From contig JBFWRL010000004.1 in NCBI GenBank assembly GCA_050248915.1, positions 12,673 to 76,672 of the forward strand: 64,000 nt of DNA, in the 5' to 3' direction. The notes beneath the pieces were generated by a model. That model ran no database searches. It was given only the letters and a program-made list of their open reading frames with translations, and was not told where the DNA came from. Below are positions 4,424 to 58,342 of this stretch, piece after piece. Position 1 is the stretch's first letter. Every line of letters starts with the position of its first letter. The DNA is from Candidatus Sericytochromatia bacterium (GTDB taxonomy: Bacteria > Cyanobacteriota > Sericytochromatia > UBA7694). Position numbers and translations under genes: made by a program.

Positions 4424-4578
4424 CGCTACTTACCTCGCGTCACAATACAGCCCAGTATACCACCCGCGTTTGGCCCAGCAGAATAGGATGGGGCCTTGGC
4501 AGGCTTGTCGCTCAGGATTCAGACCGCTAGAATAGAGGGTTTTGAATTGAGAATTCTGAGTGAGGAAGATGGTGTCTG

Positions 4579-6616: not shown

Positions 6617-7329
6617 CCCCCGTTGCCGCGTTCAACCGCACTGGTGGCGATTGTATCAAACGCGCTTTGGCTGAGATGTTTGGCGTTGTAAGTGCCCCCC
6701 GCTGTTTTTAGGGCATTGTGAAAGGCGCGCAAATGATTGCGCGAGCCTCGTTCCAGCTCTTGATAAACCAAGCGGATATCTGCTTGGTCGACGCTTTTGC
6801 TGAGGGTTTGCAAATCTGCAATATCCAATTCTTCGATCTCCAACCCGACCTGCAAAGCGGCAATTAATGACGTTTTGCCCTGTGTGATCAGACTGTCGTA
6901 GAGGCTTTGCAGGGCTGCAGCGTTGAATTTGCCTGTTTCTTTCAGGGCAGGATCGGCGATTTGGTAACGCTCGAGCAATTGCCTGACCGACTCGGTGTGG
7001 CTGGCTTCGCTGCTTGAGATATTTTGGAATTGGCGGGCCTGTGGCCACAGGCCCGCCAAGCTGAGATAAACGTCTTGGGCCAGTTTTTCTTCTTCACGCA
7101 TTTGCAAAAGGCCCGTCTTTTCAGCCTCTGAGAGCTCAGATGTGGGCATTTGTGCCAGGGCTTGGTTGAGTAAATTGTCAACCAAGCGGGTCGAGCCTTC
7201 GCTGTCGACTTGCACAAAAGGATTTTTATTGGCTCCAGGGTTGTTTTGATTGGGTCCCAACCCCAGGGTGCTGCAAGCACTGAGACTGCCCAGCAGGGCA
7301 AGGGTGGCGAAAAATTTGACTTTGAACAT
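6613..7329 (-). CDS. ferritin-like DUF2202 family lipoprotein
   Basis: Lipobox LGSLSAC. EEKLAQDVYLSLAGLW...EASHTESVRQLLERY and a second half-site EELDIADLQ...RNHLRAFHNAL typical of DUF2202 ferritin-like proteins. Confidence 0.6.
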   Translation of the reverse strand: MFKVKFFATLALLGSLSACSTLGLGPNQNNPGANKNPFVQVDSEGSTRLVDNLLNQALAQMPTSELSEAEKTGLLQMREEEKLAQDVYLSLAGLWPQARQFQNISSSEASHTESVRQLLERYQIADPALKETGKFNAAALQSLYDSLITQGKTSLIAALQVGLEIEELDIADLQTLSKSVDQADIRLVYQELERGSRNHLRAFHNALKTAGGTYNAKHLSQSAFDTIATSAVERGNGG

Positions 7330-41689: not shown

Positions 41690-41751
41690 TTGCTGTGGCG
41701 AGTATTTGTAAGTACCCAGGGCTGAGTGCCGAAGAGGTGATGGGGCTTTAG
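41690..41751 (+). repeat. 3'-terminal fragment of the Rpn-like (DUF4351 tail) gene, convergent with paralog D
   Basis: It encodes ..VASICKYPGLSAEEVMGL*. It is homologous to the 3' ends at 50893-50963, 51900-51983 and 46660-46724. Confidence 0.6.
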
Positions 41752-44700
41752 GGCTGTTGCGGGCAAGGCTTTTGAGCTGCTGTGCTGAAAGAGGCATTGG
41801 CAGGCAGCATATTGCAGGCATAGGTGGTCTGTTCGATGCGGTTGCTGGGAATATTGGCTGAGCGCGCTTCAATCCAGCCCCCTTTTAAGGCCTGGTTGGG
41901 GATATTTACAAACATATTTTGAATCTCTACCCCATCACTGTCGATTTTGGACTCTAAAAAGACAGGCTTTTGTTTGATTTCTTTGCCCACTTCTGAGCGG
42001 GGCTGAAAGATAATTTCTGTCTTGGATGGAGCAAAACCTGTACCTGTGAGGTCGAGTTGGGGAGCGGCTTTGTCGGTGGTGATATCTTGGCCGTCTTTCT
42101 CTTTGGGCCATTCAGCCGAGAACAGTTTGGGGCCGAGGAATACTTCGAGATTCATTGTGAACATCTCTTTGTGCTGAGAAAGCCAAGTATCGTATTCCCA
42201 TAATGTATTAAAAACAGAAAGAACAGCTGAGCGAACAGGTTGCGTTTGTCCAAATGAGGTCATCATTAAGTAGCCAGCTTTATTTGTTGAAAAATCACTG
42301 CTGATATAAGGTTTTCTTCTTTTAAGGCCAGATTCAGTGACTTCTTTGACGGCCTCTCCTTCGAGATTATTCACTCCCACCATCCCTGGAATCAAAAATT
42401 CACGCACCTTACGAAACTCACCATTAATGGTTTGACTTAATTTTGGACCTGGAGAAACGGCTCTCACATATAGGTTCCGAGGTTCTCTGATATTTTTATC
42501 TGCTTGCAAAAGCAGATATACCGCAGAAAGAGGCTCTGTGCCTGAACTAGAAACGCTTAATGGTGTTGCAACTGAATGACTGGCTTTGACGATATGGGTT
42601 TTGTGATAGCCAATGTGCGGAAGTGTAATATCTGGAAACAAACTTACATTTTTATGAATGATTGCATCTGTCGCGAATTTGATAAAATAATCAGCTAAAT
42701 GGTCTCTCTGGGATGAATTGTTTTTTTGTTTTAAAACTGCATTTAATGCAGCAGTAGAACGTAAGGTGTCTTTGATTTGCTTTTTTTGGTTTAAGCCATA
42801 TTCTTGAACTACATCAGCAATTATTGACGCTCCCCCGTAATGATTAAATAGATGAGTTCAAAAGGGTACCGTTAAATAAGGGCTTCGAGCCCTTCCTGCT
42901 ATTCTTTTGAGATACATGCTTTCAGTTAATTGGTTTAAAATATCAAATCTTTCTGCATATTCATATAAAACGGGTACAGTTTTTCCCAAACCTAACTCTG
43001 TTGAGTTTAGTTCTGTGGCAACGGTGCCCATTAATGCTGCTGTGCCTTCAATTAACCAGCCATCAAGAGCTGAATTTATTTCGTCTTCGGGTGTGTTTGT
43101 ATAAGCTTGTTGAAATACATGAAATAATTCATGCATTGCTGTTTCAGAACGTACTTGTCCCCAATAATCTGGTTTGAGTAGACCTCCTAAGGTACCTTGA
43201 GTAATATTTAATTGAATAGCAGAGCCCTTATATGTAGTTTCTTCATACAATTCATAAGCAACACCATTAGCAGAGCTAGGAACATTTAAATTTGTTGTAA
43301 GTAAATTTTGAAAGCGGTTAACAAGAAATACAGGGATTTTCGGGTTTTTAAACCCACGATCAAGATAAGGCGGAGGTTTTTTTTACTTCAATTCAAGATA
43401 TTGAATATAGGCTTTTTCTAGGTATTCTTTTGCATTTTTTAGAGCCTCCGGACAGGCTACTCCATGGTTGTCGCTAATAAAAAAATATTTTGAAGAATCA
43501 TCAAACTGAGATTTTTGGGGTGGTGTACAATTCGAATTTTGATTTTGGATTTGGAAAGGAAGGGTTATGTTATTTTCATTATTTAGGAATTGATCCATTT
43601 CCTTTGATGTATAGGCTATCTCGCGAGAGAAAAAACCAAATTTCTGTACCCAAAGCGGGAAATTATGGTGAGTAATATCGCTAAAATTTTCCACATCAGG
43701 TCTTTTTGCTAAGAGAGGGTAATATCCCCAAGATAAAGAATTAAATACATTCATACTTGACGTATCCCAAATGGTTGGTGCACTAAATTTTTGGAAATAA
43801 TTATAAATGGGTAAATTGAGACGTGCTATTTGATTAAGCGTCATCCCCATCGGTTCAATTTTCACGATGGGTGCAGCAAAAACCCACCCTGGAGCACAAT
43901 CATCAGGATCGTTGGGATTGGTACAATTTTGTTTGCGAGAAGCTACCTCTTTCTGCTGGCGCATAACCACCACTGTCGGCGCACTTAAGGCCCCCGCAGG
44001 CAAATCCAGCTTGGCCACCCCCTGCAACTCCACAGTCCCCCCGGCTGGCCCAATCTGCTTGATCCCCGGCGGATACGCCGCCTGCTGATTCGTCGTCCAC
44101 CAGGCCATCTGAAACTCTTTCACTGTATCGGTCTTAAACTTAAGCACTAGATTCTGCCCATCGGGGTTGTACCAATCGCTCGGCACAGGCACAGGCCGCA
44201 CACCCAACAAAAACCAGCGGTTGAGGTCAATGGGCTTGCCTTGTTTGGAGCTGAGGGTGTCTTTGACATAATACAGCTCATCGCTCACTTCTAAGCTGCT
44301 ATTGGGTTTCCACTGGCCTTGCAGGTGCAGCAAAGCCTCGTAGCTGTGCTGCGGCAGGCGAATGGTGGCTTGCCCATCGCTGGCATCGCCATCGAGAATT
44401 TCCAGCTTCTTGCCAGTCCCCGCTTCGAGCACGAGTTGAAACGCACCGTTTTCGGGAATCTTGACCTGCTGCTTGCCGTTTTTGGCCTGGGTCATAAAAC
44501 GCACGACAAAGATCTGGGGCAGATTAAAGCTCTGCACAGCAAAGCCTTCCTCTGTGGGCTTTTCGGCAAGGGCCTGCTCCAGCGCGGCATTGAGCTGGGC
44601 ATTTTTATCGGCGGGCAGGTTTTGCGCCAAGGGTGTGGTTTTCACCCTATTGGGAAAGGTCACCTTTTCAGGCGGCTTTTGGCCTGTGTGTCCAACGATG

Positions 44701-44756
44701 AGTAAGCTAAGTAAAAGGATAGAAAATAAGGTTCTGTATTTCTTCATTCTGTTCAA
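41748..44756 (-). pseudogene. frameshifted paralog (copy D) of the giant HExxH lipoprotein family
   Basis: Three ORF pieces (43383..44756, 42858..43250, 41748..42641) align in order with the N-domain, the HExxH core (AMHELFHVFQ) and the C-domain (..TYACNMLPANASFSTAAQKPCPQ) of paralog B (51986..55021). Confidence 0.7.
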
Positions 44757-45733
44757 CTTTGGGTGAGTGAGTCAAATGCTTGTAAACGCATTTTGAGCAT
44801 GTGCAGACTTTCTCGGATGGCGGTAATGTCTGGCAAATCGCCGTAAACCAAAGGACGAAAACTACTTTGATAGGTTTGGTTCAACTGCTTCCAAAGAATG
44901 TCTGTATCACTGAAAATCAGGGCATGGACCAAAGGTGCTTGATTCCATTCCCCCTGAAATTCCCGGCTGTCGGCATCGTCTTTTTGTGCGTCTTGCAAGG
45001 TCTCAAAAAACCGCCCACTGTTTACAAATTCTCTCAGCGGTTGATGATTCATTAAAATATGTAAATCATAGGTATGACGAATCTTGTTTTGAAGTTGCGC
45101 AATGGGGTCGGCATGGTAAGAGGCACGGGCCAGTGCCAAGACTTTTTCTACCAGTGTTCGCTCTGGGTGTAATACCAGAATAGAAAAGGGTTCAAGCCCA
45201 TATTGACTGATCAAGGCTTCTTGGTTTTGAGCCGCGAAGAAGTCGGCTATCATTGTGTTGATTGGGGTGGGCTGATAGGGGGACGGATTGCCGAAGGCAT
45301 TTAACTCTAAAACAAGAAATGCGCTGATCTGGCTCTGCGGTGCGGGGGCTAACTCTAAAACAGGATAAAGATGGGCCGTTCGGCGAAAGCGAGACCACTT
45401 TTTGGTGATGCCTTCCAGCTTGAGTTCGCTTAAATGGCGTGTGATTTCTTTGGAAACCTTGTCTATTCTGCTTTTGATCTGATTCCCGGTTAAACCTTCC
45501 GCCAGCAAAGCCAGATCAACATCCTCTGAAAATCGCTGGATCAGGCCAAACGCTTTGGAGAGAGAGGTTCCTCCTTTAAAGACAAATCGCTCATGATAGG
45601 GGGATTCTCCCAGCTTTTTTAAGACGGTTGTAAGCCAATAATCTTTTTCGACCCAGGTATCAGGCATTCCCAAATGAACTGCAGCAGCACGAATACTGGC
45701 TTTAAAGAGTGGTGGATTCTCATGTAAATTCAT
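44753..45733 (-). CDS. AbiEii/AbiGii-family nucleotidyltransferase toxin (DUF1814)
   Basis: FKGGTSLSKAFGLIQRFSEDVDL matches the minimal-NTase motif of AbiEii. 326 aa. Confidence 0.7.
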   Translation of the reverse strand: MNLHENPPLFKASIRAAAVHLGMPDTWVEKDYWLTTVLKKLGESPYHERFVFKGGTSLSKAFGLIQRFSEDVDLALLAEGLTGNQIKSRIDKVSKEITRHLSELKLEGITKKWSRFRRTAHLYPVLELAPAPQSQISAFLVLELNAFGNPSPYQPTPINTMIADFFAAQNQEALISQYGLEPFSILVLHPERTLVEKVLALARASYHADPIAQLQNKIRHTYDLHILMNHQPLREFVNSGRFFETLQDAQKDDADSREFQGEWNQAPLVHALIFSDTDILWKQLNQTYQSSFRPLVYGDLPDITAIRESLHMLKMRLQAFDSLTQS

Positions 45734-46458
45734 CGAATATACCAGTTGCGGTAGTTTGGAAAAGTGTCTTTGTCTATTTTGAGGCGATAACGACTGCTGG
45801 GATTGAGGGTTTGCGCCAAAGTCTGGGCCAGTCTCTTTTTTCCCAGACTTTCCAAAACCAAACCCACAAAGGCCCGGCAGGAGGGGGGATAATTCAGGGC
45901 CAGTTGGGCAAGCTCATCTTGCTGATCCCGTTTGAGTTCTTTAATGCGCAAGCGCAATAAAACAGAAGATTTTTCTGGGGTGGTGGCAGGGATGTTATCC
46001 ATTTCCCGAATGGCATCCAGAATTTGCAAGAGATAGGTGTCTTGGACGGCTGTTTTGACATAACTGGGAATAAAGCGAATGGTGGTAGCCCCAGAAACAA
46101 TCGGCATTCGACGCGGCTTGTCAGAGGCGATGACATACTCGGTGGAGACCTGTGTGGTGAGGCCCATTTGGGTATAGGCTGGCAGCCCGGTTAAATAGGC
46201 AATGCTGTCTTTGTACAGAAGTAGCAATTTATCCAGGAGGCCGCGTGTTGTGGGTGGGAGTTCGCCAAAAGGGCTTTGTTCAGGTTTGTAATACAAACCC
46301 TTGGTAATGCGTTGCAAACCACCTGCTCGGTAAAGTTCGCTCAGGGCCTTTTCCAAGGCAATTTTTTTTGCCAGAGGCAGTTTAAAATCCTCCAGAGATA
46401 GCAGCGCGCCCGCCGCTGTATTTTGCACCTGTGTTTTTACCCACTTATTTACATTCAT
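45730..46458 (-). CDS. putative AbiEi-like antitoxin / regulator partner
   Basis: It lies immediately upstream of AbiEii with a 4-nt overlap. RITKGLYYKP is the kind of motif seen in AbiEi/DUF6088-type partners. The start is taken at MNVNKW. Confidence 0.45.
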   Translation of the reverse strand: MNVNKWVKTQVQNTAAGALLSLEDFKLPLAKKIALEKALSELYRAGGLQRITKGLYYKPEQSPFGELPPTTRGLLDKLLLLYKDSIAYLTGLPAYTQMGLTTQVSTEYVIASDKPRRMPIVSGATTIRFIPSYVKTAVQDTYLLQILDAIREMDNIPATTPEKSSVLLRLRIKELKRDQQDELAQLALNYPPSCRAFVGLVLESLGKKRLAQTLAQTLNPSSRYRLKIDKDTFPNYRNWYIR

Positions 46459-46620
46459 TTTGAATTGGCCTAAATTGTTTTCTGACTTGGGTTTTATTGT
46501 AATCAAGTGGACGATATAAATCAAGTTTTTTTATGAAAAACCTGATTATTTTGAACTCAAGACCTTTATGCGTGGCGGGAAAGAATGACAAGATGCCCTG
46601 CGTCTGGGTTTGCAGCAATG

Positions 46621-46724
46621 AGCGGGTAGTAATTTGCTGAACGAATACCTTAGCCGATGGCCTGCCTGTGGCGAGTATTTGCAAGTATACAGGGCTGAGC
46701 GCTGAAGAGGTGGCGGGGCTTTAG
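46621..46724 (+). repeat. internally deleted remnant of the Rpn-like gene 3' region, convergent with paralog A
   Basis: The sequence gtagtaatttgctgaacgaatacctta matches 50677-50695 and is joined directly to gccgatggcctgcctgtggcgagtatttgcaagtatacagggctgagcgctgaagaggtggcggggctttag, which matches 50893-50963. Its stop overlaps the stop of paralog A. Confidence 0.7.
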
Positions 46725-49700
46725 TGGTTTTTGCAATTCCCTGCGCTGGTAATGCGGTAATCAGCTCCTTTGGGTATCATATTGCAAACCAGTTCGATTT
46801 TTTCTTTGTATTCACTCTCTAAATTCCCTGATTTTGCATAGATATAACTTTCCTCCTCTGGGGCTGCGTCATCAGGTACTTTCACAATAATTTCCTGTTC
46901 TTGCTCAATACTGACAGGTTGGGCTAAGTTGCTGACACTGTGTGCTTTTACAGCAATATCCGGCAAATTTGCTAAACGATGTTTGAAATAAACAACCGTA
47001 TCTGTTAAAGAGAATCCTGAACCCCATAGTGCGAGCATTTTATTTTCGGTTACTCCATCTGATTCAGTAAAAGCTCTTTTGCCCCAAATGGTGGGCGAAA
47101 CAAAGGCTTTGAATTGAAACGAGATGGTTTTTTTGTCTGAATTGGTTGTGATATAGGGATTGGTGATACTTAAAATCAGGCGTACACGGTGGGGTTCAGC
47201 AGGATTGTTTTGGGTGGGCCTGTCTTCCTGGGGAATGGGAATGCCCAAGATATAAACACTTCGCGGAAGAACCCCTTTAATACTGGGGTTTCGTGATTCT
47301 GTAGGTACATTTATACGTTTTTCAAATTTGAGAGGCTCGGCCACAATTTTGGGATCAGAAAGCCATTTTACTTTGGCCAAAAGGGGTTTTTCATCCTTCC
47401 AGTTGTCCAGGGGCTTCGGATTTTTGAGTACTAAGACTCGTGTTCCTTTGGCGATAAAATCTTCTGCTTGTTCATCTGTCAAACCCTCTGCGGAGGCTCT
47501 GTCGAGGTAGATATATGCCATATAGGGGTCTTTAAACTTTTTTGGGTCTTTGTCTGATAGTTTTTGAGTTACCAGTGGAAACTCCACATAGCGATGTGCC
47601 ATTTGAAGGTTTTGGAGTGAGCTGTTGGTTACCATTTGAGGGTTGTTGGGGGTGTTGCGGGTTGTGACCAATATAGGGTTTGCACGGTCATTTGGTTGAG
47701 CGGGAATTGTGTAGTTCACTGTTTCGAGGTTGCCCGTATTATTGGCTATTGGTCGTATTTTAGGACGTTCTAAATATTTAAAATTTTCAGGCTTTTCAGA
47801 TCCCATGCCATAATCTTTTAATGCTACTTTGGCCCCAAAATTTGGAAAAGTTGTATCAAGTTGAGCATAGTTATGGAGCGAGGAAACGGCACCCTCATTT
47901 GTAAATTCTCGTTTTTGAAGATAGTGAACATTTATATCGTGAATTTTCTGAAAGGCTATTTGATTTGGATAAAAATTGCTAATAAGGTTTAATATAATAA
48001 GACGATAATAAGCATTTTCGCCGTCAGGTATATTTGGCTCTTGATATAGAGATGTTTGATTTAACAGATCTAAACCTTTACTCAAACTACCATGGTAAGG
48101 AATTTTTCCATATAAAAAGACAACAGGATTTGGGTCAATTCCGTATTTTTTGTACAATTCATGATGCTTAAAGGTACTTATGCTACCCATAAACCTACCA
48201 GAACTTTCAATTAACCAAGCTCGATCTACTGTGCTTAAAGCCCAACCCCAGGGATTGAATGCTTGGTTTGGAAGGTCAAAACTTTTTACATTTGCAACTT
48301 GAAAAGAATGATAATTTTCATGGGCAGTAGAATCTATTAAGTTGTCAATATTGGGACCTGGATCTACCCACATCTCGGCATTGCGAAACCCGTTTCCTTT
48401 TGCATAAGTGTACCCATTGGTTGCTCCTCCTGGTCCAGATGTAATTGGCTTAAGATACAGAGGGATTCCTTTGAAATCCGTACCTCCATGCCGAAAATCT
48501 TCCCACTTGGATGGCATTATTCCCCTGGCATACGGAATAAAGTCTTCACGACTATTTAGGAGAACTTCACATGCTGCATTTTTCTTTTCTTCAGAAGGAG
48601 AAACATCCCATCTTAAAATATATTGAGGTGTTAAGTCGTTGTGAGTATTGATGGGTGGGTTTGGACAAGGTTGTTCACTAACAAGAGCAATTTGAAATTC
48701 TTCTTGTTCATTATTTCCAATATAAGAAGGGGAATAAGTTCGCGGAGCTACAAGTATACGAACAAATGAAAAATGATGTATTTCATACCACTCGTGTTTG
48801 GTCATATAATGAGCTTGCTTTTTTTGGGGGGCCAGATGAAGTATTTCTGCCTGTTCCCAGAAAATGCCATTATCGGGAAACAAATAATAATGTATAGTGC
48901 TCGGCAAATATCCTTTAGCCTTTTCTAAGTCAATTTTCAAGCGTATATTTGCTGGTTTTAAGAATTGTAAGCCGCTGGGTTGGAGTTCAACAGGTGTTGC
49001 CAGATCTATTTCATCTGGACCGGGTGTAAAATCTTCATCAGGAAATTGATATACTTCATCTTTTTGTTTGATAACTATTACTTTATTCTCAGTCAAAGCC
49101 CCCGCAGGTACTTCCAATTCAGCCACCCCCGGCAGCTCCACGACCCCTCCGCCAGGCCCAATCTGCTTGATCCCCGGTGGAAAGGGAGCCTCACCGCGCT
49201 GCTTTTGCAGGAGCAGCTCAAACTCTTTGATCTGCTTGGCCTTAAACCGCAGCACAAAAGCCTGCCCATCAGGGCTGTACCAATCACTCGGCACGGGAAT
49301 GGGTCGCAGCCCCAGCTTGAACCATTTATTATCCCGCTCATCGTGGTGCCCCTTGTGCTTGCGCTCTTTGCTGAGGGTGTCTTTAACATAATAAAGCTCA
49401 TCGCTGACATCTAAGCGGCTATTGTCTTTGGCCTCTTCTAAATGCACCCAGGTTTTGAGCGTGCTTGCGGGCATTTGCACCCGTGCTTCGCCATCGCGGG
49501 CATCTTTGTCTAGTAGCTCAAAGCGTGGGCCAGCTTCGAGTGTGAGCATAAATTCACCTGTTTCAGGCATGAGAATCTGGCGCTTGCCCTTGGCCTCTTT
49601 GCTTTTGAATTCAAGCACATAGGCGGCGTTGTTATCCTGTTCATTGTGTTTGTCATCTTTGTCTTTGTCGCTGGCTGTGCTGAAACCCGTGCCAGGGTCA

Positions 49701-49963
49701 ACACTTGGGTTGTCTAAAAAAGCCCTGAGCAGGGCGCTCACTTCGTCTACTTCGCTGGGCTCGGGGGCCTCTAGCAAAGTGGTTGTGACCATATTGGGAA
49801 AGGTCACTTTTTCAGGTGCTTTGACTGTGCCCGTATTGGCCACGGTTTGTACCTGTGCCTGCTCAGGGCTTTTGCTGCTTTGCTGGGCCGGGGGAATCCA
49901 AGAGCAGGAAGCCAGGAGTGTTGCCAGCAGAGTCGAAGATAGGTATTTGAGAGATGCTTTCAT
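46721..49963 (-). CDS. giant HExxH lipoprotein, paralog A (putative secreted/surface zincin-like protease)
   Basis: 1080 aa. Lipobox LLASC. N-domain with PEKVTFPNMV and PGIKQIGPGGGVVELPGV. HExxH at about 48305-48325 (TAHENYHSFQ). C-domain GSGFSLTDTVVYFKHR...VCNMIP. A strong SD caaggaggtaattaaATG precedes it. Confidence 0.85.
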   Translation of the reverse strand: MKASLKYLSSTLLATLLASCSWIPPAQQSSKSPEQAQVQTVANTGTVKAPEKVTFPNMVTTTLLEAPEPSEVDEVSALLRAFLDNPSVDPGTGFSTASDKDKDDKHNEQDNNAAYVLEFKSKEAKGKRQILMPETGEFMLTLEAGPRFELLDKDARDGEARVQMPASTLKTWVHLEEAKDNSRLDVSDELYYVKDTLSKERKHKGHHDERDNKWFKLGLRPIPVPSDWYSPDGQAFVLRFKAKQIKEFELLLQKQRGEAPFPPGIKQIGPGGGVVELPGVAELEVPAGALTENKVIVIKQKDEVYQFPDEDFTPGPDEIDLATPVELQPSGLQFLKPANIRLKIDLEKAKGYLPSTIHYYLFPDNGIFWEQAEILHLAPQKKQAHYMTKHEWYEIHHFSFVRILVAPRTYSPSYIGNNEQEEFQIALVSEQPCPNPPINTHNDLTPQYILRWDVSPSEEKKNAACEVLLNSREDFIPYARGIMPSKWEDFRHGGTDFKGIPLYLKPITSGPGGATNGYTYAKGNGFRNAEMWVDPGPNIDNLIDSTAHENYHSFQVANVKSFDLPNQAFNPWGWALSTVDRAWLIESSGRFMGSISTFKHHELYKKYGIDPNPVVFLYGKIPYHGSLSKGLDLLNQTSLYQEPNIPDGENAYYRLIILNLISNFYPNQIAFQKIHDINVHYLQKREFTNEGAVSSLHNYAQLDTTFPNFGAKVALKDYGMGSEKPENFKYLERPKIRPIANNTGNLETVNYTIPAQPNDRANPILVTTRNTPNNPQMVTNSSLQNLQMAHRYVEFPLVTQKLSDKDPKKFKDPYMAYIYLDRASAEGLTDEQAEDFIAKGTRVLVLKNPKPLDNWKDEKPLLAKVKWLSDPKIVAEPLKFEKRINVPTESRNPSIKGVLPRSVYILGIPIPQEDRPTQNNPAEPHRVRLILSITNPYITTNSDKKTISFQFKAFVSPTIWGKRAFTESDGVTENKMLALWGSGFSLTDTVVYFKHRLANLPDIAVKAHSVSNLAQPVSIEQEQEIIVKVPDDAAPEEESYIYAKSGNLESEYKEKIELVCNMIPKGADYRITSAGNCKNH

Positions 49964-50063
49964 TTAATTACCTCCTTGCGGGTAGAGGATATAGCGGCCT
50001 GTATTGGCCAGGGTGTCTTGGACCTCCACCTCTAGCGTATGGCCTGGCAGGCGATAGGGCAAG
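49964..50063 (-). repeat. about 100-bp boundary repeat: 3' end of a 930-aa-type gene plus SD, upstream of paralog A
   Basis: It is nearly identical to 55022-55122 and to the genuine 3' end of the 930-aa gene at 58343-58445, which encodes ..LPYRLPGHTLEVEVNDTLANTGRYILYPQGGN*. Confidence 0.8.
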
Positions 50064-50111
50064 AGGTAAATACCAATGGTCTGTATACTTTTGTATGTTA
50101 TAATGGACTGA

Positions 50112-50963
50112 ATGAGTAAACACCGAATTCATTGGGATCATTATTTCAGTCAATGGCTGGCACACGCTTTGCCCCGCCATGATTTGGTGGTTGAAGAAAA
50201 ACCCCAGTTCAGTCAATTGCCCTTAGAAGCAGACGTTTTAATTATTGCGGCTTCTCAGGCCAAGTCTGCATGGCAAAAGCATCCCCTGTGGTGTCATTTG
50301 AGCCCTTATACGGTGCTGGAGTTTAAGTCTGTCGTCGATCCCTTTCGCGCTCATGATTTGGAAACGCTGTCTGCTTATGTGTCTCTGACCCATCGTCAAC
50401 ACCCCTTGTCGTTGCCTACAGAGGTAAGCGGTTGGTTGGTTGTTTCGGCGATGAACAAAGCGTTGCGGAGCCGTTTGCAAAGTTATGGGATTCAATTGGA
50501 ATCACGGCTATCTGGGTTTTGGCAGGCAGAGACGACGTTTTATCGTCTGGGAGTGGTGGAGTACAACCATTTGCCAAATACCGAAGCTTTTTTTGAGTTA
50601 AAAACCTTTATGCGCTCAGGACAAGCGTTGCGAGAAACCCTGCGCATGGGTTTAAAGCACTTAGCAGGTAGTAATTTGCAGAACGAATACCTTACAATAA
50701 TTTCAGCGCTACACAAACAGGAGGCCGAAGCCGTGATTCAGGTATTGGAAAGTGAAAAAGAGAATGTGGCTTGGGTTGTGGAGCAGTTATTAGAGAAGTC
50801 TCCCGACTTGAGTGAAAAGATCCCCTTCATTCAAGCACAGAAATCTTCGGGTAAGCTAGAAGGGTTGCGTGAGACCGCCCGCCAGATGAAAGCAGATGGC
50901 TTGCCTGTGGCGAGTATTTGCAAGTATACAGGGCTGAGTGCTGAAGAGGTGGCCGGCCTTTAG
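50112..50963 (+). CDS. Rpn-family / DUF4351-tail protein (putative PD-(D/E)XK recombination-promoting nuclease/transposase-like)
   Basis: 283 aa. The C-terminal ..ARQMKADGLPVASICKYTGLSAEEVAGL is the characteristic DUF4351 tail of Rpn/YhgA-like proteins. The N-terminal region is weakly nuclease-like. Confidence 0.55.
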   Translation: MSKHRIHWDHYFSQWLAHALPRHDLVVEEKPQFSQLPLEADVLIIAASQAKSAWQKHPLWCHLSPYTVLEFKSVVDPFRAHDLETLSAYVSLTHRQHPLSLPTEVSGWLVVSAMNKALRSRLQSYGIQLESRLSGFWQAETTFYRLGVVEYNHLPNTEAFFELKTFMRSGQALRETLRMGLKHLAGSNLQNEYLTIISALHKQEAEAVIQVLESEKENVAWVVEQLLEKSPDLSEKIPFIQAQKSSGKLEGLRETARQMKADGLPVASICKYTGLSAEEVAGL

Positions 50964-51089
50964 GGGGCTTTTGCTTGGGTTTGGTTACAAGGTGTAGTGG
51001 GTTTATTCTGCAAGGTATTTGAAATCACATAGCTCGCATTGCTCTGAACGCTGTTGCATGAGACAGGTGTGATCCCAAAAACTTCGATT

Positions 51090-51150
51090 TCGAAGTTTTC
51101 TTTGACCTCCACCTCCAGTGTGTGGCCTATTAGCCGATAGGGCAAGTGAG
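51090..51150 (-). repeat. degenerate third copy of the 930-aa-gene 3'-end boundary repeat
   Basis: The minus-strand ORF fragment encodes ..LPYRLIGHTLEVEV... Compare LPYRLPGHTLEVEV at the true gene end. Confidence 0.6.
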
Positions 51151-51227
51151 CGTTGGTTAAAAATAGCCTCAAAACACCCATGCAAAATTCCTGTTAATTT
51201 TGTATATACATATGATATATTTTAAGT

Positions 51228-51512
51228 ATGCGTTTGCCAGATCAAATCCGTACTATTTCATCCGCCCACAAACATGGGGTAACTGAAACCCAAATTTTAG
51301 ACAGCTTGTACAACCCCTACCAACGCCCCTTGCTATTGCGTTCAGAGTCTGACCCGACTGTGGTACTGGCTCTGGCGGAAACAGAAGATGGAGAATTGTT
51401 TGAAATTGGCTATGTACCTGAGCAAGAGGGTGTGGCTAGAGTGATTCATGCCATGCCCATGCGCCTCAGTTACCAAAAACGCTATCACACCAAGAGGAAA
51501 AGGCGAAGATGA
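51228..51512 (+). CDS. putative BrnT-like toxin (DUF497)
   Basis: 94 aa. AHKHGVTETQILD...LFEIGYV...ARVIHAMPMR resembles BrnT. It is paired with the downstream antitoxin by an ATGA overlap. Confidence 0.5.
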   Translation: MRLPDQIRTISSAHKHGVTETQILDSLYNPYQRPLLLRSESDPTVVLALAETEDGELFEIGYVPEQEGVARVIHAMPMRLSYQKRYHTKRKRRR

Positions 51513-51781
51513 AACGAACTGTGCCCCAAACGCTTGCTGAATGTCAAACAGATGAGCAACGTGCAGACTATCTTGTTAAACATGATGTCTTTGAAAGCGA
51601 TGAATTCAAGTATGAAGGGGTGGCCGAGCCTCCCCGTCGTCGCTTGATGCAGCAATTGCATATGCGGATTGACGAAGAAACCATTGCCCGTCTGCGCAAA
51701 GTGGCTGACAGTAAGCGCATGGGGTATCAGACGTTGGCCAGGATGTGGCTGATAGAGCGTTTGGAACAGGAAGAAGTCTGA
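51509..51781 (+). CDS. putative BrnA-like antitoxin (RHH/CopG-like)
   Basis: ..RIDEETIARLRKVADSKRMGYQTLARMWLIERL resembles the BrnA C-terminus (..GIPYQTLI..). Confidence 0.55.
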   Translation: MKRTVPQTLAECQTDEQRADYLVKHDVFESDEFKYEGVAEPPRRRLMQQLHMRIDEETIARLRKVADSKRMGYQTLARMWLIERLEQEEV

Positions 51782-51785
51782 GGCA

Positions 51786-51983
51786 ATGGGTTTGGCCGCA
51801 GAACGTCAGGAATTGAGAAAGACCATGCTTGAGTTGGTGAAAGAAGATGTTGAAAAAACATTACAAGCACGTGAACTTCAAAGTAAACGCGAAAGCGCCC
51901 GCCAGATGAAAGCCGATGGCTTGCCCGTGGCCCGAATTTGCAAGTACACAGGGCTGAGCGCTGAAGAGGTGGCGGGGCTTTAG
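51786..51983 (+). pseudogene. truncated Rpn-like gene fragment (DUF4351 tail only), convergent with paralog B
   Basis: A 65-aa ORF ending ..ARQMKADGLPVARICKYTGLSAEEVAGL*. Its N-terminal part is unrelated to the intact gene at 50112. Confidence 0.55.
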
Positions 51984-51985
51984 GG

Positions 51986-54900
51986 CTATTGAGGACAGGG
52001 CTTTTGAGCTGCTGTGCTGAAAGAGGCATTGGCAGGCAGCATATTACAGGCAAGAGTTGCATCAATGAGTCGGTTGCTGGGGATATTGGCTGTTTGCCCC
52101 TCTACCCAACCGCCACGCAGAGCTTCGTTGGGAATATCCACCACAAATTTTTGAATTTCAACTCCGTCACTGTCTGCTTGAGAGTTGAGAAAATGGGCTT
52201 TGCGCTTAAGATTTTTGTCTATTCCTGAGCGGGGTTCAAATACGATTTCTGTCTGAGTAGGTGTGAATCCAGTCCCTGTGATTAAAAGCTGTGGCAACCC
52301 TTTTTCAGCTGCTTGGCTGAGCTCGTTGTCCTCTTGGGGCCATTCTGCGGAAATGAGCTTGGGGCCGAGGAATACTTCAAGGTTCATGGTGAATTTTTCT
52401 GTATAAGCTTGTGTCCAAATGTCTGTTTCCCAGAGAGTATTAAAGACAGATAAAATGGCTGATTGAACAGGTTGATTTTGACCAAAAAGAGGCATCATAA
52501 AATGCCCTGATTTATCAAAAGCAAAACCACTGCTGATATATGGTTTGCGTTTTTTACCACTGGCTTCAGTTATTTCTTTGACCGCTTCTCCTTCCAGATT
52601 ATTCACACCGACCAAACTGGGCGCTAAAAACTCTTTGACTTTTCTGGCTTGTTGATTAATGGTGTGGGTCAAATTGGGATCAGGAGAAATGGCGCGAACG
52701 TATAAGTTGCGCGGTTGCAGAATCTTCTTATCCGCTTGTAAGAGCATGTATATGGCAGATAGGGGTTCTGTGCCGTTGGTGCTAATGTGAAGTGGGGATT
52801 GGACTGTATGATTGGCTTTGACGACATGGGTATGCCGGAAAGCGACATGGGGCAATGAATAACTGGAGAAAAGGCAAATATCTTTGTGGATGATGGCATC
52901 TGTGGCAAAACGCGTAAAATAATCACTGAGAAGGGTGTCATCTTTTTTCTTTAAAAATGCTGCCAGAGCACCTGTTGAACGAGGTGTGTTTGGGGTATTG
53001 GCTGGTCTTTTTCTAAAGTTTAAGCCGTATTCTTTAAAGAGTTCAGCTATGCCGTTGGGGCCGTAATAGTTCGCAAAATGGGTCCACAAGGGAACTGTGT
53101 CATAAACACTGCGATTTTCGTTATAATCACGTAAATAATAAAAACTTTTTTCCAGTTGTTCCAGAGAACGAACACGCTCATAGTAGCTGTAAACTTGGGG
53201 ATCTATTGCTTCTAATCCAATATCTGCTCTTCTCGTCTCGACCGCAAAAGGCCCCATATATGCTGCTGTGCCTTCGAACATCCAGCGATCACCGATGGAT
53301 GCGTCATCTTCAGGTGTTTGCAAATAGGCATCTTGAAAAATATGAAACAACTCATGTGCGCTTGTATCTGCAAAATTGTGTCCCCAAAAATCTCGGCCAC
53401 CTACCAAACTGTCTTTTTCGATATTCATTTGCATAGCTGAGCCTTGATAGACATTGTTTTTATAAATGGGATAAGCTACGCCATTTGCATTTTGGGGGGT
53501 GGTAGATGCAATGTCCCTCAAGAGATCTTGAAAGCCCTCTACTATAAAAACAGGAATTTTGGTCTCCTCCAGATCGGTTGGAGAATAAAATTGTGGAGGT
53601 GCTTTCATATCCCAACTGGCATAGACAGAATAGGCATTTTCAAGATATTTTTTTATACTGTCCATGGCTTCTGGGCAAGCTTCGCCATCATTGTCGCTAA
53701 TATAAAAGTGTTCTGTAATTTCTCGTTGAAACGTACCCTTTTTTTGACAAGTAGGATTATAGCTCTGAATTTTAAAAGACTCTGATTCAAAAAACTGATC
53801 TACACTGGGTGTATAGTGTTGTTGCTTTGAAAAATAGGCGAATTCTTGGATCCAAAGAGGAAAATTATGATGTGTAATATCACTAAATTTTCGGACATCT
53901 GTACGTTTTGCTAAATAGGGAAAATACACCCAAGAAAAAGGTTCTAAAATATTTGCTGTTGCTACATCTTGTTGGCTTAATGGATCATAACGTTTAAAAT
54001 AATCATAAATTGGTAAATTCAGCTTAGCTGGTTGGTTGAGTTTTAATCCTAATGGTTCTATTTTAACAATGGGAGCAGCAAAAACCCAGCCAAGAGCACA
54101 GTCTTGTGGATCATGTGGATTTGGGCAATATTTTTTACGAGAAGCTACCTCTTTCTGCTGGCGCATAACCACCACCGTCGGCGCGCTTAAAGCCCCTGCA
54201 GGCAAATCCAGCTTGGCCACCCCCGGCAGCTCCACAGTCCCCCCCGCAGACCCAATCTGCTTGATCCCCGGCGGATATGCCGCCTGCTGATTCGTCGTCC
54301 ACCAGGCCATCTGAAACTCTTTCACTGTATCGGTCTTAAACTTCAGCACCAGCTTTTGCCCATCGGGGTTGTACCAATCACTCGGCACAGGCAAAGGCCG
54401 CACACCCAACAAAAACCAGCGGTTTAAATCGAGCAATTTGCCCTGTTTGGAGCTGAGTGTGTCTTTGACATAGTAGAGGTCATCGCTCACCTCTAAGCTG
54501 CTATTGGGCTTCCAGGGGCCTTGCAGGTGTAGCAAAGTCTCGTAGGTATGCTGGGGCAGGCGAATCGTGGCTTGGCCATCGCTGCCATCGCCATCGAGAA
54601 TTTCCAGCTTCTTGCCAGTCCCCGCTTCGAGCACGAGTTGAAACGCGCCATTCTCGGGAATTTTGACCTGCTGTTTGAGGTTCTTGGCCTGGGCCATAAA
54701 GCGCACGACAAAGACCTGGGGCAGATTAAAGCTCTGCACAGCAAAGCCCTCTTCGGCAGGCTTCTCGGCCAGGGCCTGCTCCAGCGCGGCATTGAGCTGG
54801 TCGTTTTTATCGGCGGGCAGGTTTGTGTCCAAGGGTGTGGTTTTCACCATATTGGGAAACGTCACCTTTTCAGGCGGCTTTTGGCCTGTGTCGGCAGCGG

Positions 54901-55021
54901 TCTGCACCTGTGCTTGTATCTGGGCCTGTCGCTGGCTGCTTTGCTGGGCCGGGGGAATCAGGCTGCAGGCAGCGAGAAAGCTGGCGAGCAGGGCTGCGGA
55001 TAGGGGTTTGAGTAAATTCAT
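51986..55021 (-). CDS. giant HExxH lipoprotein, paralog B
   Basis: 1011 aa. Lipobox FLAAC. B/D-type N-domain. HExxH at about 53341-53370 (SAHELFHIFQ). C-domain TGTGFTPTQTEIVFEPRSG...ATLACNMLPANASFSTAAQKPCPQ. The same SD and boundary repeat lie upstream. Confidence 0.85.
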   Translation of the reverse strand: MNLLKPLSAALLASFLAACSLIPPAQQSSQRQAQIQAQVQTAADTGQKPPEKVTFPNMVKTTPLDTNLPADKNDQLNAALEQALAEKPAEEGFAVQSFNLPQVFVVRFMAQAKNLKQQVKIPENGAFQLVLEAGTGKKLEILDGDGSDGQATIRLPQHTYETLLHLQGPWKPNSSLEVSDDLYYVKDTLSSKQGKLLDLNRWFLLGVRPLPVPSDWYNPDGQKLVLKFKTDTVKEFQMAWWTTNQQAAYPPGIKQIGSAGGTVELPGVAKLDLPAGALSAPTVVVMRQQKEVASRKKYCPNPHDPQDCALGWVFAAPIVKIEPLGLKLNQPAKLNLPIYDYFKRYDPLSQQDVATANILEPFSWVYFPYLAKRTDVRKFSDITHHNFPLWIQEFAYFSKQQHYTPSVDQFFESESFKIQSYNPTCQKKGTFQREITEHFYISDNDGEACPEAMDSIKKYLENAYSVYASWDMKAPPQFYSPTDLEETKIPVFIVEGFQDLLRDIASTTPQNANGVAYPIYKNNVYQGSAMQMNIEKDSLVGGRDFWGHNFADTSAHELFHIFQDAYLQTPEDDASIGDRWMFEGTAAYMGPFAVETRRADIGLEAIDPQVYSYYERVRSLEQLEKSFYYLRDYNENRSVYDTVPLWTHFANYYGPNGIAELFKEYGLNFRKRPANTPNTPRSTGALAAFLKKKDDTLLSDYFTRFATDAIIHKDICLFSSYSLPHVAFRHTHVVKANHTVQSPLHISTNGTEPLSAIYMLLQADKKILQPRNLYVRAISPDPNLTHTINQQARKVKEFLAPSLVGVNNLEGEAVKEITEASGKKRKPYISSGFAFDKSGHFMMPLFGQNQPVQSAILSVFNTLWETDIWTQAYTEKFTMNLEVFLGPKLISAEWPQEDNELSQAAEKGLPQLLITGTGFTPTQTEIVFEPRSGIDKNLKRKAHFLNSQADSDGVEIQKFVVDIPNEALRGGWVEGQTANIPSNRLIDATLACNMLPANASFSTAAQKPCPQ

Positions 55022-55126
55022 CTTAACTACCTCCTTGCGGGTAGAGGATATAGCGGCCTGTATTGGCCAGGGTGTCTTGGACCTCCACCTCTAGCGTATG
55101 GCCTGGCAGGCGATAGGGCAAGCTAA
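55022..55126 (-). repeat. about 100-bp boundary repeat (3' end of a 930-aa-type gene plus SD) upstream of paralog B
   Basis: It matches 58343-58447 including the extension ..gcaagctaaaac. There is no intact 930-aa gene upstream of B. Confidence 0.8.
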
Positions 55127-55228
55127 AACTGACCTTTACTGTTATCCCTCACCGCTACCTTTTGCTTTTACATTCTTTCTGAACGCAGTACGATAGCCTG
55201 CAAGAATCTTGTGAGAGGAGGTGCAAAC

Positions 55229-58200
55229 TTATGGGGGATCAGAGTCTGATGTACATGGGTTTACGCTCGTGAGCGAAAAATCTTCTTGCAACATATTGCA
55301 GGCAAAAGCTGTATCGTTCAGTGTATTACTCGGCGTTTCTGCTGATAATCCGTAAGTCTGACCTGATACTTTTGCATGATTCGGTATTTGGACTAATAAT
55401 TCTTGCACTTCTAGGCCATCACTGTCTGTAGATAAAACTTTTATGTCTTGAGGGTTGACTTTTGTTTTGATGGCAATTGCCCCAGATTTTGGTTGAAAAA
55501 CCATCCACGTGTCATTCGGATCAAAACCAACCCCTTGAAATGATATACGTGTAAGCGTTTCATCATCAGAAAGGGCAATTTTTTTGCTTGATTTTAACTC
55601 TGGTGCAAGGTAATAGTTTATGTCCAGAAATATCGATAAGGGTGCTTGGGCGGATTCATAGAAATTTGAATTGGGTATGGCTAAGACTAATTTTTCAACA
55701 TTGGTTTTATTTAAAATTACAGCAGGGAATCCATTTGTTTTGTCTATAAATCTCCTGTAATTTAATACTTTATCAATTCCATTTTCGCTTTTAATCAAAA
55801 ATATGCGCGCATATTTTGCAAAATCAGAGGACTCTTCTTTATTTAAAATTTTAGGAGGAATAGATGAGCCCAAATTTTTAACGATATTATTTAAAAATAC
55901 TATAATCTTTTTATTTGATGGAATATCTTGAGTATCTATTTCAAAAAAATGCACAGAATCTGCCGATAGCTCTTTTCTTAAATTTATTTTGTCCTTTGGG
56001 TAGCTTGTTTTTTTTATTTTTTCTATTTTATCAATAGGGGAAAATAATTCAATATTATAATCATTTTTAATCTTAATAAGATTGCTAGCCGAGTTCATGC
56101 CATAATGTTGGCGCGTATAAAGTGAGTGGGAATATTTTCCCCAAATTTCTTCCCAGCTGTCGTCTTCTAATTGAGCTTTTATGGTATTGTTTTGAAGAGC
56201 TAAAGTTTTTAAAGGGACAACTTGATGGTCAGAATTGTTGTGAAAAGATTGTACGTAACTGAGTAAAAAAGAGTTTCCAAGGTAATCGTTCTCTGGCTTG
56301 CTTTCAGAGCTTCCTACCAAATGCCAGAAATAGGACATGAGAGAGACTTGCTGATAAGGATCTGGCGTTAGTCTAACAGGCTTTTGGGTGTTTTTTATGC
56401 TTGGCAATAAATCTTCGATGTATGCAGTTAAGGAGCTACTTGACTGTGGACTGGACCAAATCAAAGAAAAAGCAGATTTCCCTGTAAAGTTTGTTAATAT
56501 ATTATAGTTGTTAAAATCTCTGTATAGTTGATGTGAACCCACAAAACGAGCCGTACTTTCTCCCGGTAGTCGACCATAATTACACGTTTTACAATATAAT
56601 TGGATATATGTTGAGTAGTCTAAATTTCCAAACTGGAAAACATGAAACATCTCATGATAAACTTTCTCAACACCTAATGGGTATGTTAATAGCGGTATGG
56701 TTACAGAGGATGAGCCTGCTTTAAATTCTTTTAATTTAGTTGTTGCCTCAATGAGATTTGAACCTATATTTATTCTCTGTTTTCGGGAGGTGTATCCAGG
56801 TATTTGGTCGTCTAAAATCGGCAAAGAAATGTTAGCTTGATCTTTTTTTGAGAATTTTTGGTAAGATTTTTCCGCTGCTACCATATATGCAAGGATATAA
56901 GCCGCATCAAGAGCTGAATTTGTTTGGTCATTTGTTATATGGACAAAAATATGACCAGGATCTGGTGCTGGTTCATTGCAAAGTTCTTCAAGTCTTTGTC
57001 TTGCTGAAGAAACAGATATGATTTCATTTGCTAGAGAGATTCTTGTTAAGCAAAATTTGGAGCTACCTCCTTGATTTGGCTTTGGTGCTGGTAACGTATT
57101 GGTTGAAATTAGAAAATCATTGTCGGTTAATTTGGCAAAATATGAAAAATGATTTACTAAATAACCTACTTCGTCAATATTATTAAATTGAGGGTTAATT
57201 TGTTTTGTTTCAAAGTCTAGAGATTGGCAATTTACGTTTTGAAGAGGTGATGTCTTCAACTCTGGACAGGAAATCATTTGTATTAAACCAATGTGATAGG
57301 GCCAATTTTTAAAAAAAGTGCTTAAACGCATGACTGCAGGTTTTTGAAATGTAAGCCCAGTTGGATTCATTTTTACAATAGGGGATACAAAAGTAAAATC
57401 ATTAAATGGATACGTAGAAACAACCTGCCTCATAGAGATAACTACTGGTGCTAATAATGCACTTGCTGGCACTTCAAGTTTTCCCACCCCCGGCAGCTCC
57501 ACTGTGCCCCCCGCAGGCCCAATCTGCTTGATCCCCGGTGGAAACGGAGCCTCACCGCGCTGCTTTTGCAGGAGCAGCTCAAACTCTTTGATCTGGTTGG
57601 CCTTAAAGCGCAGCACAAAAGCCTGCCCATCAGGGCTGTACCAATCACTCGGCACGGGAATGGGTCGCAGCCCCAGCTTGAACCATTTATTATCCCGCTC
57701 ATCGTGGTGCCCCTTGTGCTTGCGCTCTTTGCTGAGGGTGTCTTTAACATAATAAAGCTCATCGCTGACATCTAAGCGGCTATTGTCTTTGGCCTCTTCT
57801 AAATGCACCCAGGTTTTGAGCGTGCTTGCGGGCATTTGCACCCGTGCTTCGCCATCGCGGGCATCTTTGTCTAGTAGCTCAAAGCGTGGGCCAGCTTCGA
57901 GTGTGAGCATAAATTCACCTGTTTCAGGCATGAGAATCTGGCGCTTGCCCTTGGCCTCTTTGCTTTTGAATTCAATCACATAGGCGGCGTTGTTATCCTG
58001 TTCATTGTGTTTGTCATCTTTGTCTTTTTTATCGTCATCTTTGCCTTTGTCGCTGGCTGTGCTGAAACCCGTGCCAGGGTCAGCACTTGGGTTGTCTAAA
58101 AAGGCTTTGAGCAGGGCGCTCACTTCGTCTACTTCGCTGGGCTCGGGGGCCTCTAGCAAAGTGGTGGTGACCATATTGGGGAACGTCACTTTTTCAGGCG

Positions 58201-58342
58201 GCTTTTGGCCTGTGTCGGCAGCGGTCTGCACCTGTGCTTGTACCTGTCGTTGGCTGCTTTGCTGGGCCGGGGGGATCAGGCTGCAGGCAGCGAGAAAGCT
58301 GGCGAGCAGGGCTGCGGATAGGGGTTTGAATAAGGCTTTCAT
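55229..58342 (-). CDS. giant HExxH lipoprotein, paralog C (mosaic)
   Basis: 1037 aa. The first about 55 aa are B-like (MKALFKPLSAALLASFLAACSLIPPAQQSSQRQ). The N-domain is A-like from PNMVTTTLLEAPEPSEV onward, including a KD-rich insertion. The unique very AT-rich core has HExxH at about 56640-56668 (VYHEMFHVFQ). The C-domain is B/D-like: ..TAFACNML. Confidence 0.85.
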   Translation of the reverse strand: MKALFKPLSAALLASFLAACSLIPPAQQSSQRQVQAQVQTAADTGQKPPEKVTFPNMVTTTLLEAPEPSEVDEVSALLKAFLDNPSADPGTGFSTASDKGKDDDKKDKDDKHNEQDNNAAYVIEFKSKEAKGKRQILMPETGEFMLTLEAGPRFELLDKDARDGEARVQMPASTLKTWVHLEEAKDNSRLDVSDELYYVKDTLSKERKHKGHHDERDNKWFKLGLRPIPVPSDWYSPDGQAFVLRFKANQIKEFELLLQKQRGEAPFPPGIKQIGPAGGTVELPGVGKLEVPASALLAPVVISMRQVVSTYPFNDFTFVSPIVKMNPTGLTFQKPAVMRLSTFFKNWPYHIGLIQMISCPELKTSPLQNVNCQSLDFETKQINPQFNNIDEVGYLVNHFSYFAKLTDNDFLISTNTLPAPKPNQGGSSKFCLTRISLANEIISVSSARQRLEELCNEPAPDPGHIFVHITNDQTNSALDAAYILAYMVAAEKSYQKFSKKDQANISLPILDDQIPGYTSRKQRINIGSNLIEATTKLKEFKAGSSSVTIPLLTYPLGVEKVYHEMFHVFQFGNLDYSTYIQLYCKTCNYGRLPGESTARFVGSHQLYRDFNNYNILTNFTGKSAFSLIWSSPQSSSSLTAYIEDLLPSIKNTQKPVRLTPDPYQQVSLMSYFWHLVGSSESKPENDYLGNSFLLSYVQSFHNNSDHQVVPLKTLALQNNTIKAQLEDDSWEEIWGKYSHSLYTRQHYGMNSASNLIKIKNDYNIELFSPIDKIEKIKKTSYPKDKINLRKELSADSVHFFEIDTQDIPSNKKIIVFLNNIVKNLGSSIPPKILNKEESSDFAKYARIFLIKSENGIDKVLNYRRFIDKTNGFPAVILNKTNVEKLVLAIPNSNFYESAQAPLSIFLDINYYLAPELKSSKKIALSDDETLTRISFQGVGFDPNDTWMVFQPKSGAIAIKTKVNPQDIKVLSTDSDGLEVQELLVQIPNHAKVSGQTYGLSAETPSNTLNDTAFACNMLQEDFSLTSVNPCTSDSDPP

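Follow-up and report, generated by a model that had tools for sequence, protein, structure and literature searches.

The window, a stretch of 64,000 nucleotides from a Candidatus Sericytochromatia bacterium, carries a gene for a 930-aa lipoprotein, here called the partner, and an array of paralogous genes for HExxH lipoproteins, designated C, B, A and D from the partner onward, with a remnant of a fifth paralog, E, between B and A. The partner, the paralogs and the partner-derived segments discussed below all lie on the minus strand; the corresponding locus tags in the source metagenome-assembled genome (MAG) are AB7I41_01855, AB7I41_01880, AB7I41_01890 and AB7I41_01895. The partner gene (58343-61135) is intact and is listed by NCBI as AB7I41_01895 with a product of 927 aa. 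The initial annotation had taken positions 58343-58447 for the true 3' end of this gene, and the ORF of 58343-61135 does run to that point, ending in LPYRLPGHTLEVEVNDTLANTGRYILYPQGGN and a stop codon. Besides the lipobox LLSC, the encoded protein has a linker rich in Pro and Cys and a C-terminal domain that is conserved. Only five homologues of it were found among the 5.8e9 proteins searched. Compared with the partner of the related locus L002 (7154-10000) the gene is a mosaic, with approximately 45 % nucleotide identity in the 5' third and 97-100 % in the last ~1 kb. The N-terminal half of the protein is far closer to P0015, a second partner-like protein of 1214 aa from the same MAG, than to the L002 partner (65 % identity over 60 % of the partner query), and the C-terminal half of P0015 is unrelated. 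Exact-protein look-ups with the 930-aa ORF, paralog C and P0015 returned no record, and searches of PDB sequences with paralog B and the partner gave nothing usable.

Paralog C (55229-58342, 1037 aa; P0001, AB7I41_01890) starts with an ATG that abuts the partner TAA. It is followed by paralog B (51986-55021, 1011 aa), paralog A (46721-49963, 1080 aa) and the B-like paralog D (41748-44756). In the public annotation, paralog B (P0006, AB7I41_01880) is a protein of 834 aa starting at residue 178 of the ORF; the sequence supports the full 1011-aa ORF with its Shine-Dalgarno (SD) sequence, ATG and lipobox. Paralog D consists of a single frame over ~3 kb with two in-frame stops, after LELK and after TVPF, and an altered N-terminus lacking a lipobox, while the HELFH motif is still present; it is either a pseudogene or a case of sequencing error or read-through. 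The apparent remnant of paralog E (50964-51098) was read by eye, from its position and from its alignment with the other paralog 3' ends, as the 3' end of a deleted gene terminating in PCNQTQAKAP and a stop. A perfect palindrome, AACTTCGAAATCGAAGTT, is present at 51078-51098, exactly where the homology of a degenerate partner segment ends. As no second copy of this palindrome occurs in the window, a MITE or other repeat element at this deletion junction was rejected; the sequence may represent a hairpin formed at the junction of the deletion.

The paralogs are lipoproteins with the lipobox LAAC or LASC, a conserved N-terminal module of ~330 aa, an HExxH..Q..E motif and, at the C-terminus, a conserved domain that contains Cys. 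The residues H556, E557, H560, Q563 and E583 (numbering of B) are invariant in 10/10 sequences, a pattern that fits the HExxH...E signature of gluzincins. The NCBIfam model MXAN_6640_HExxH matches the paralogs weakly (E 1.8e-5, 24.7 bits against a cut-off of 140). Pfam ZU5 was found on paralog C at aa 274-341 at a sub-threshold level (E 0.002, 18.7 bits against a cut-off of 21) and on P0058 of a relative with 22.1 bits. The AF2 model of paralog B is confident only at aa ~100-290, and the best PDB matches to it in Foldseek were the ankyrin ZU5A-ZU5B domains (E 2.6e-5), with low TM-scores. ZU5 modules have been described on bacterial surface proteins that carry enzymatic domains (PMC3482391). 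The lipoproteins of the window resemble these in combining a conserved ZU5-like N-terminal module with a variable, putatively enzymatic part, here of the gluzincin type, but differ in that the ZU5 assignment is weak in the window. The family is rare: a word-indexed search gave 10 matches and an exhaustive search 124 cluster representatives, most of which match only the N-terminal module. Sequence conservation among these representatives is seen in the N-terminal module, with variation in the C-terminal part. The 930-aa lipoprotein together with the ZU5-like/HExxH lipoprotein is flagged here as a rare, uncharacterised two-gene module.

Short copies of the partner 3' end lie elsewhere in the array. 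Using 58343-58447 as the query in BLASTN against the whole 64 kb, matches were obtained at 49964-50063 (96.0 % identity over 100 nt, E 3e-43), at 55023-55127 (95.2 % over 105 nt, E 3e-44) and at 51099-51146 (83.3 % over 48 nt, E 1e-9), and no further match was seen below E 0.01. The near-identity of the first two to the partner end that had been described initially was thereby reproduced, at values above the 90 % that had been set as the lower limit for a shared origin, so that a common origin of these segments with the end of the 930-aa gene is supported. The degenerate copy that had been noted near 51090-51150 was located as well. These last ~100 nt of the partner represent the source type of the segments, which will be called scars.

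Scar A (49964-50063) aligns to 58343-58442 and is a relic of 100 nt comprising the last 32 codons of the partner, its TAA and the SD sequence; it directly abuts the ATG of paralog A at 49961-49963. Scar B was longer than originally described: the match at 55023-55127 holds, and when the partner genes of the related loci L009 and L008 are used in the alignment, it extends to 55135. This relic of ~114 nt contains 33 or more codons, the TAA, the SD sequence AAGGAGG and one base, after which the ATG of B follows (55019-55021; motif CAAGGAGGTAGTTAAGATG). Its outermost bases, AGGTCA, are of the L009/L008 allele type, unlike those of the window's own partner. Scar E (51099-51146) corresponds to the upstream half of the relic. 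The SD sequence AAGGAGG is invariant across all copies. Homology to the partner 3' end stops abruptly, at 50063 in scar A and at 55135 in scar B. The base at which it is lost, just before TTGCCC (C/TTGCCC), is identical in scar A (50063), scar E (51146), a second scar in L009 (at 16699) and L012. Three substitutions that scars A and B have in common were considered as derived states and rejected as such; they are L009-type states and give no proof of an exclusive A-B lineage. The assertion that each paralog keeps a scar is correct for A and B and not for D: the D-B homology ends at 44689, and an AbiEi (DUF6088)/AbiEii module (44753-46524, minus strand; PF08843, E 6.5e-30; PF19570, E 2e-9) sits where the scar and signal peptide of D would be.

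The other recurrent element of the array is a gene on the plus strand. Its full-length form (50112-50963, 283 aa) converges on unit E and points away from scar A, from which its start is separated by 48 nt. It is called Rpn-like only, a weak assignment, because NCBIfam TIGR01784 matches its C-terminus alone (E 8e-4, 19.3 bits against a cut-off of 52.1); Pfam gave no match, so that neither TIGR01784 nor PF04754 was reached above cut-off. Fragments of its 3' end are found behind A, B and D. The fragment at B (51786-51985, plus strand) is convergent with B, abuts its stop, is 88 % identical to 50868-50965 and is conserved in L009 and L002, with a 65-aa ORF retained. Small C-terminal antitoxins, RpnS, are known from the rpn genes of E. 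coli (PMC10400941), and this ORF is reminiscent of them. The remnant at A (46546-46734, plus strand) abuts the stop of A and has decayed into two pieces with an internal deletion, 46652-46734 being 90 % identical to 50891-50974 and 46546-46652 being 76 % identical to 50588-50694. A short fragment at D (41693-41760, plus strand) abuts the stop of D and is 86-87 % identical to the other copies. In A, B, D and E as well as in L002 and L009, the paralog stop is joined to the Rpn-like 3' end at one common point. A small conserved gene was sought behind each paralog and not found; only Rpn-like fragments or toxin-antitoxin (TA) modules are present there. One TA module (51228-51781, plus strand), with genes for a 94-aa protein and a 90-aa CopG-type antitoxin (PF12441 CopG_antitoxin, E 4.7e-6), separates unit B from the degenerate scar and is syntenic in L009 at 16065-16618.

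The search for intact pairs in related genomes that the initial annotation had proposed was successful. The partner and a lipoprotein gene occur together in L002/L003 (abutting), in L008 (abutting; the contig ends within the lipoprotein gene) and in L009, a Sericytochromatia MAG from Lake Mendota that is syntenic with the window, the malate synthase and isocitrate lyase (ICL) genes having 90 % nucleotide identity. The pair is therefore ancestral, in agreement with the original proposal of a conserved unit of partner and HExxH lipoprotein. The gene behind the partner is B/D-like in L002 and L009 and is C in the window; paralog B is of the type that is orthologous to this single copy in L002 and L009. 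The abutment of stop and start codons that had been ascribed to the ancestral unit applies to C and A, but not to B, where one base intervenes, nor to L009, where 26 nt separate the two genes. In L009 (12780-12856, compared with window 58343-58375), the partner stops at a TGA, and an SD-bearing spacer precedes the lipoprotein ATG. Both L009 copies read GGTAACTGA, a 23-nt spacer and AGGAGGCAATTAAATG. None of the window copies A, B and C has the spacer of 23 nt, nor do L002 and L008. In the window, L002 and L008 the partner ORF accordingly reads through the former SD sequence (QGGN and stop) and its TAA abuts the ATG.

The gene order in L009 is partner, lipoprotein, Rpn-like 3' fragment, convergent TA pair, scar 2 (16699-16821) and a truncated second paralog. 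Window positions 51093-52811 align contiguously with L009 15027-16752, across the junction between TA pair and scar; the alignment takes in the 3' end of B, then the Rpn-like fragment and the TA pair, and lastly the initial ~50 nt of the scar. Scar 2 of L009 is thereby identified as the orthologue of the degenerate scar at 51099-51146, and the duplication that formed the relic must predate the split between the window and L009. L012 (JBIKWL010000189.1), a second contig of the L009 MAG, has the same TA/scar junction as scar 2; there, the lipoprotein ATG has been lost and unrelated DNA begins after ~20 nt, which makes it either a strain variant or a second locus without the paralog. An additional partner fragment in L009 extends from -250 to -29 and has boundaries of its own. 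Pattern scans for further instances returned none in metagenome contigs and, among genome contigs, only the L009 MAG.

It had been proposed initially that the whole pair of partner and lipoprotein was duplicated and that each later copy then lost its partner by deletion, with the last ~30 codons left behind. This is improbable for the array as a whole. Had the deletions been independent, scar A, scar E, L009 scar 2 and L012 would not share one edge, and no partner pseudogene is left upstream of any relic. The same edge in these four copies, together with the orthologous TA/scar junction, instead argues for one truncation that was inherited by the later duplications. In addition, the Rpn-like gene that directly flanks scar A belongs to the unit before it, as is expected for tandem repeats of a unit composed of the 100-nt relic starting at -100, the lipoprotein gene and the Rpn-like gene. 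Partner loss may be retained in part. Scar B, with its own edge at -114 and its L009/L008-type outer bases, may be what remains of an original partner that was displaced on the arrival of a response-regulator gene, the present partner and C; the third partner fragment of L009 with its different boundaries and the existence of P0015 as a second partner-like gene in the MAG would also suit such losses. For scar A, scar E, L009 scar 2 and L012 the idea is not supported.

The preferred reading, to which a probability of roughly 70 % is assigned, is that the scar was left by a segmental duplication that had its upstream breakpoint ~100 nt inside the partner gene, that it has been homogenised by conversion, and that it now serves as a passive leader. 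The features by which a segmental duplication is recognised were found here, namely high identity with an abrupt and fixed end, and the same boundary, including an orthologous junction, in L009. Starting from the observed homology, boundaries, orthologous junction, mosaicism and genome-specific indel, the order of events was reconstructed from four genomes. The ancestral locus would have consisted of the partner and the lipoprotein gene followed by the convergent Rpn-like gene. A unit made up of the final 100 nt of the partner with the SD sequence, the lipoprotein gene and the Rpn-like gene would have been copied in tandem at a time when the L009 lineage had not yet split off, and re-copying of this unit would have given rise to E, A and D, with the edge inherited base for base. 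Scar B, with its 114 nt, would go back to an event of its own, in which paralog C became placed between the partner and B. At a later stage, most of E would have been deleted, TA modules would have been inserted and D would have decayed. Recombination and conversion would have kept the relic, SD sequence and signal-peptide region nearly identical within the genome, while the gene bodies were reshuffled and diverged. The relic would be transcribed as an untranslated leader that supplies the SD sequence, from promoters that may lie in the AT-rich flank for A and E or upstream in the operon for B. It would thus probably serve just as an SD-bearing leader and as a stretch of recombination homology.

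The patterns of divergence along the array are relevant to the second part of this reading. Between A and C, 4 mismatches are present in the scar, ~50 (~36 % different) in the signal-peptide and linker region of A (49817-49955) and ~10 in 49184-49816, which includes a perfect run of 367 nt; below 49152 the two are unrelated. The 367-nt run was reached in 0/5000 permutations, the permutation mean being 36. Paralog A is thus a mosaic, with a signal-peptide region of its own and an N-terminal module nearly identical to that of C. Between A and B, 1/99 positions differ in the scar and 27/88 in the adjacent 88 nt. Paralog B is C-like over the scar and signal peptide (92 %) and D-like afterwards (84 %). 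In L009, all 11 differences between scar 2 and the intact partner end fall in the upstream ~75 nt (~15 % drift), and from about -47 to +175 only 0-2 differences remain, as in a converted tract. The relics of the window deviate by 4-5 % from the intact end, although the duplication is older than the split between window and L009. The 23-nt indel points in the same direction: as the copies are older than the split and nevertheless have the state of their own genome, they bear a signature of concerted evolution. Both hallmarks of concerted evolution were found, mosaic tracts longer than expected by chance and genome-specific states common to the copies within a genome. From these comparisons it appears likely that gene conversion or homologous recombination among the direct repeats keeps the relics alike.

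A functional explanation for this constancy has to be weighed. The last ~100 nt of the partner could be a cis-acting element for lipoprotein expression, either an internal promoter with a leader or a device for translational coupling, that is kept by selection, with a deletion bias that trims each copy to the functional edge. Two independent edges do converge, at -100 and -114, and their lying 14 nt apart in a gene of 2.8 kb is a coincidence that random breakpoints do not account for and that gene conversion, too, leaves unexplained. The SD sequence is unchanged in all copies, and the relics are far better conserved than the adjacent coding sequence of A. Between the intact genes of the window and L008, synonymous divergence (pS) drops at precisely the scar edge, from 0.71 just upstream of it to 0.08 across the final 33 codons. 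Gene conversion limited to the extent of the homology explains this drop; selection on the sequence would equally yield it. The comparison with L009 is less favourable to an element under selection: over the final 33 codons of the partner, pS amounts to 0.37 and is not under the housekeeping background of 0.295 measured for ICL, and it is 0.57-0.77 in the partner body. The relic block therefore seems to evolve at about the background rate between window and L009, the partner body being far older. The upstream 75 nt of L009 scar 2 have drifted by the ~15 % mentioned above, and a -10-like TATATC is CACTATC in that scar.

Candidate elements within the relic were examined and rejected. Scans with sigma-70-type consensus sequences for an internal promoter, and a search for a terminator, gave no site on the sense strand in or beside any scar. 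Folding energies are no better than those of shuffled sequences (z -0.15 to -0.63), and no Rfam match at E<=1 was obtained across 41-62 kb, which disfavours a structured RNA leader. A 32-aa ORF that starts with TTG at the relic edge in A and B has no SD sequence and is an artefact of a Leu codon, so that it is not regarded as a leader peptide. Taken with these results, a cis-acting element is considered unlikely, and the inherited breakpoint with subsequent conversion is preferred.

Conserved sequence in front of each paralog is more general in the family. In the distant relative L013, each tandem paralog has the same upstream block of ~120 nt, at 263-459, 4788-4984 and 6882-7055, in which a hairpin is followed by TGCTAGAAT, an extended -10-like sequence; the third copy truncates the ORF of P0008. 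The block also contains TTTAGCTTGC, a 10-mer identical to the mark at the scar edge in the window, which may be coincidental. Since the L013 paralogs each have a conserved block of their own, a conserved 5' block is a habit of the family, for which partner coding sequence is used in the lineage of the window.

The direct repeats could also have been maintained for exchange. The relic, SD sequence and signal-peptide region would then be a 5' handle and the Rpn-like fragment a 3' handle, by which recombination swaps, deletes or duplicates whole lipoprotein genes behind a fixed partner, possibly with help from the Rpn-like nuclease. The flanks are indeed better conserved than the interiors, A and B being 99 % identical in the 5' relic and 92 % in the 3' fragment with a saturated interior. 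A nearly identical partner 3' end precedes C in the window and a B/D-like gene in L002: the block of 98-100 % identity between the two loci ends ~50 codons into the lipoprotein gene, and different paralog bodies follow. The joining of the L012 relic to unrelated DNA and the conserved N-terminal and variable C-terminal parts among the 124 cluster representatives would fit as well. If this were the case, the locus would offer recombination-based variation of a surface ZU5/metalloprotease lipoprotein in Sericytochromatia, analogous to the exchange of orphan cassettes in polymorphic toxin loci but moving whole genes. It is regarded as doubtful. Every copy is a complete gene, A to C each having its own start, SD sequence and lipobox, and no silent partial cassette is present; the relic ends in a stop codon and makes no in-frame fusion to a variable part; the Rpn assignment is weak; and ordinary homologous recombination accounts for all patterns.

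Several known systems share some of these properties. In the vlp and vsp lipoprotein families of Mycoplasma, a block of 5' non-coding and signal-peptide sequence is near identical between genes and the mature parts vary; these loci vary by poly-A tracts in promoters or by site-specific inversion. The array differs from them, since neither tracts of this kind nor inverted repeats nor a recombinase were seen at it. An inversion switch was rejected, since 40000-62000 contains no inverted repeat of at least 30 nt and all copies are in direct orientation, and no recombinase was found among the neighbouring genes tested. Invertible or site-specific phase variation of the shufflon or vsa type, which rests on such repeats and a recombinase, was accordingly not recognised beside the array.

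Recombination of cassettes is a known mode of polymorphic toxins (PMC3482391). In the orphan toxin/immunity cassettes of the Rhs and CDI polymorphic toxin loci, as in the array, a short piece of the conserved part of the main gene is repeated before variable modules and can be used as recombination homology. In those systems, however, the repeated piece and a partial toxin tip that has no start of its own form an in-frame fusion; here, the relic ends in TAA and the next, complete lipoprotein gene has an SD sequence, an ATG and a lipobox. No immunity genes were identified. The type VII secretion system immunity genes esaG and tsaI of Firmicutes form tandem arrays of paralogues that evolve by homologous recombination (PMC9484751). 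Like the present array they consist of non-identical paralogs in direct repeat, in which recombination produces mosaics, deletions and duplications and the copy number differs between strains. The difference is that the repeat unit in the window begins inside the neighbouring gene and drags a coding fragment of it along as a non-coding leader, and that the proteins are unrelated large lipoproteins.

On the preferred reading of an inherited duplication breakpoint, the relic is a molecular fossil that dates and orders the duplications in an array of an uncultured, non-photosynthetic relative of the cyanobacteria, and it indicates that the lipoprotein array is older than the species split. It would also be a worked example of a non-coding fragment that is kept nearly constant by gene conversion and not by function. 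The mechanism is textbook genome evolution, ordinary in kind, in an uncharacterised lipoprotein family. Judged from sequence, the mosaicism of the module and its setting among toxin-antitoxin genes suggest a fast-evolving surface or conflict function.

In each of the lineages examined, namely the window, L006/L007 and L013, TA modules lie interspersed among the paralogs. An AbiE module is also present in L006 (7940-9633); two unrelated genomes have AbiE immediately upstream of a paralog. In L013, antitoxin-like genes, judged from their translations, were seen at 1-189 and 4265-4546. The GC content of the array (42000-58000) is 0.39-0.48, as compared with 0.51-0.58 elsewhere in the window. A TnpB/IS605 OrfB-type gene (37556-38863, minus strand; PF01385 and PF07282) is located ~3 kb past the distal end of the array.
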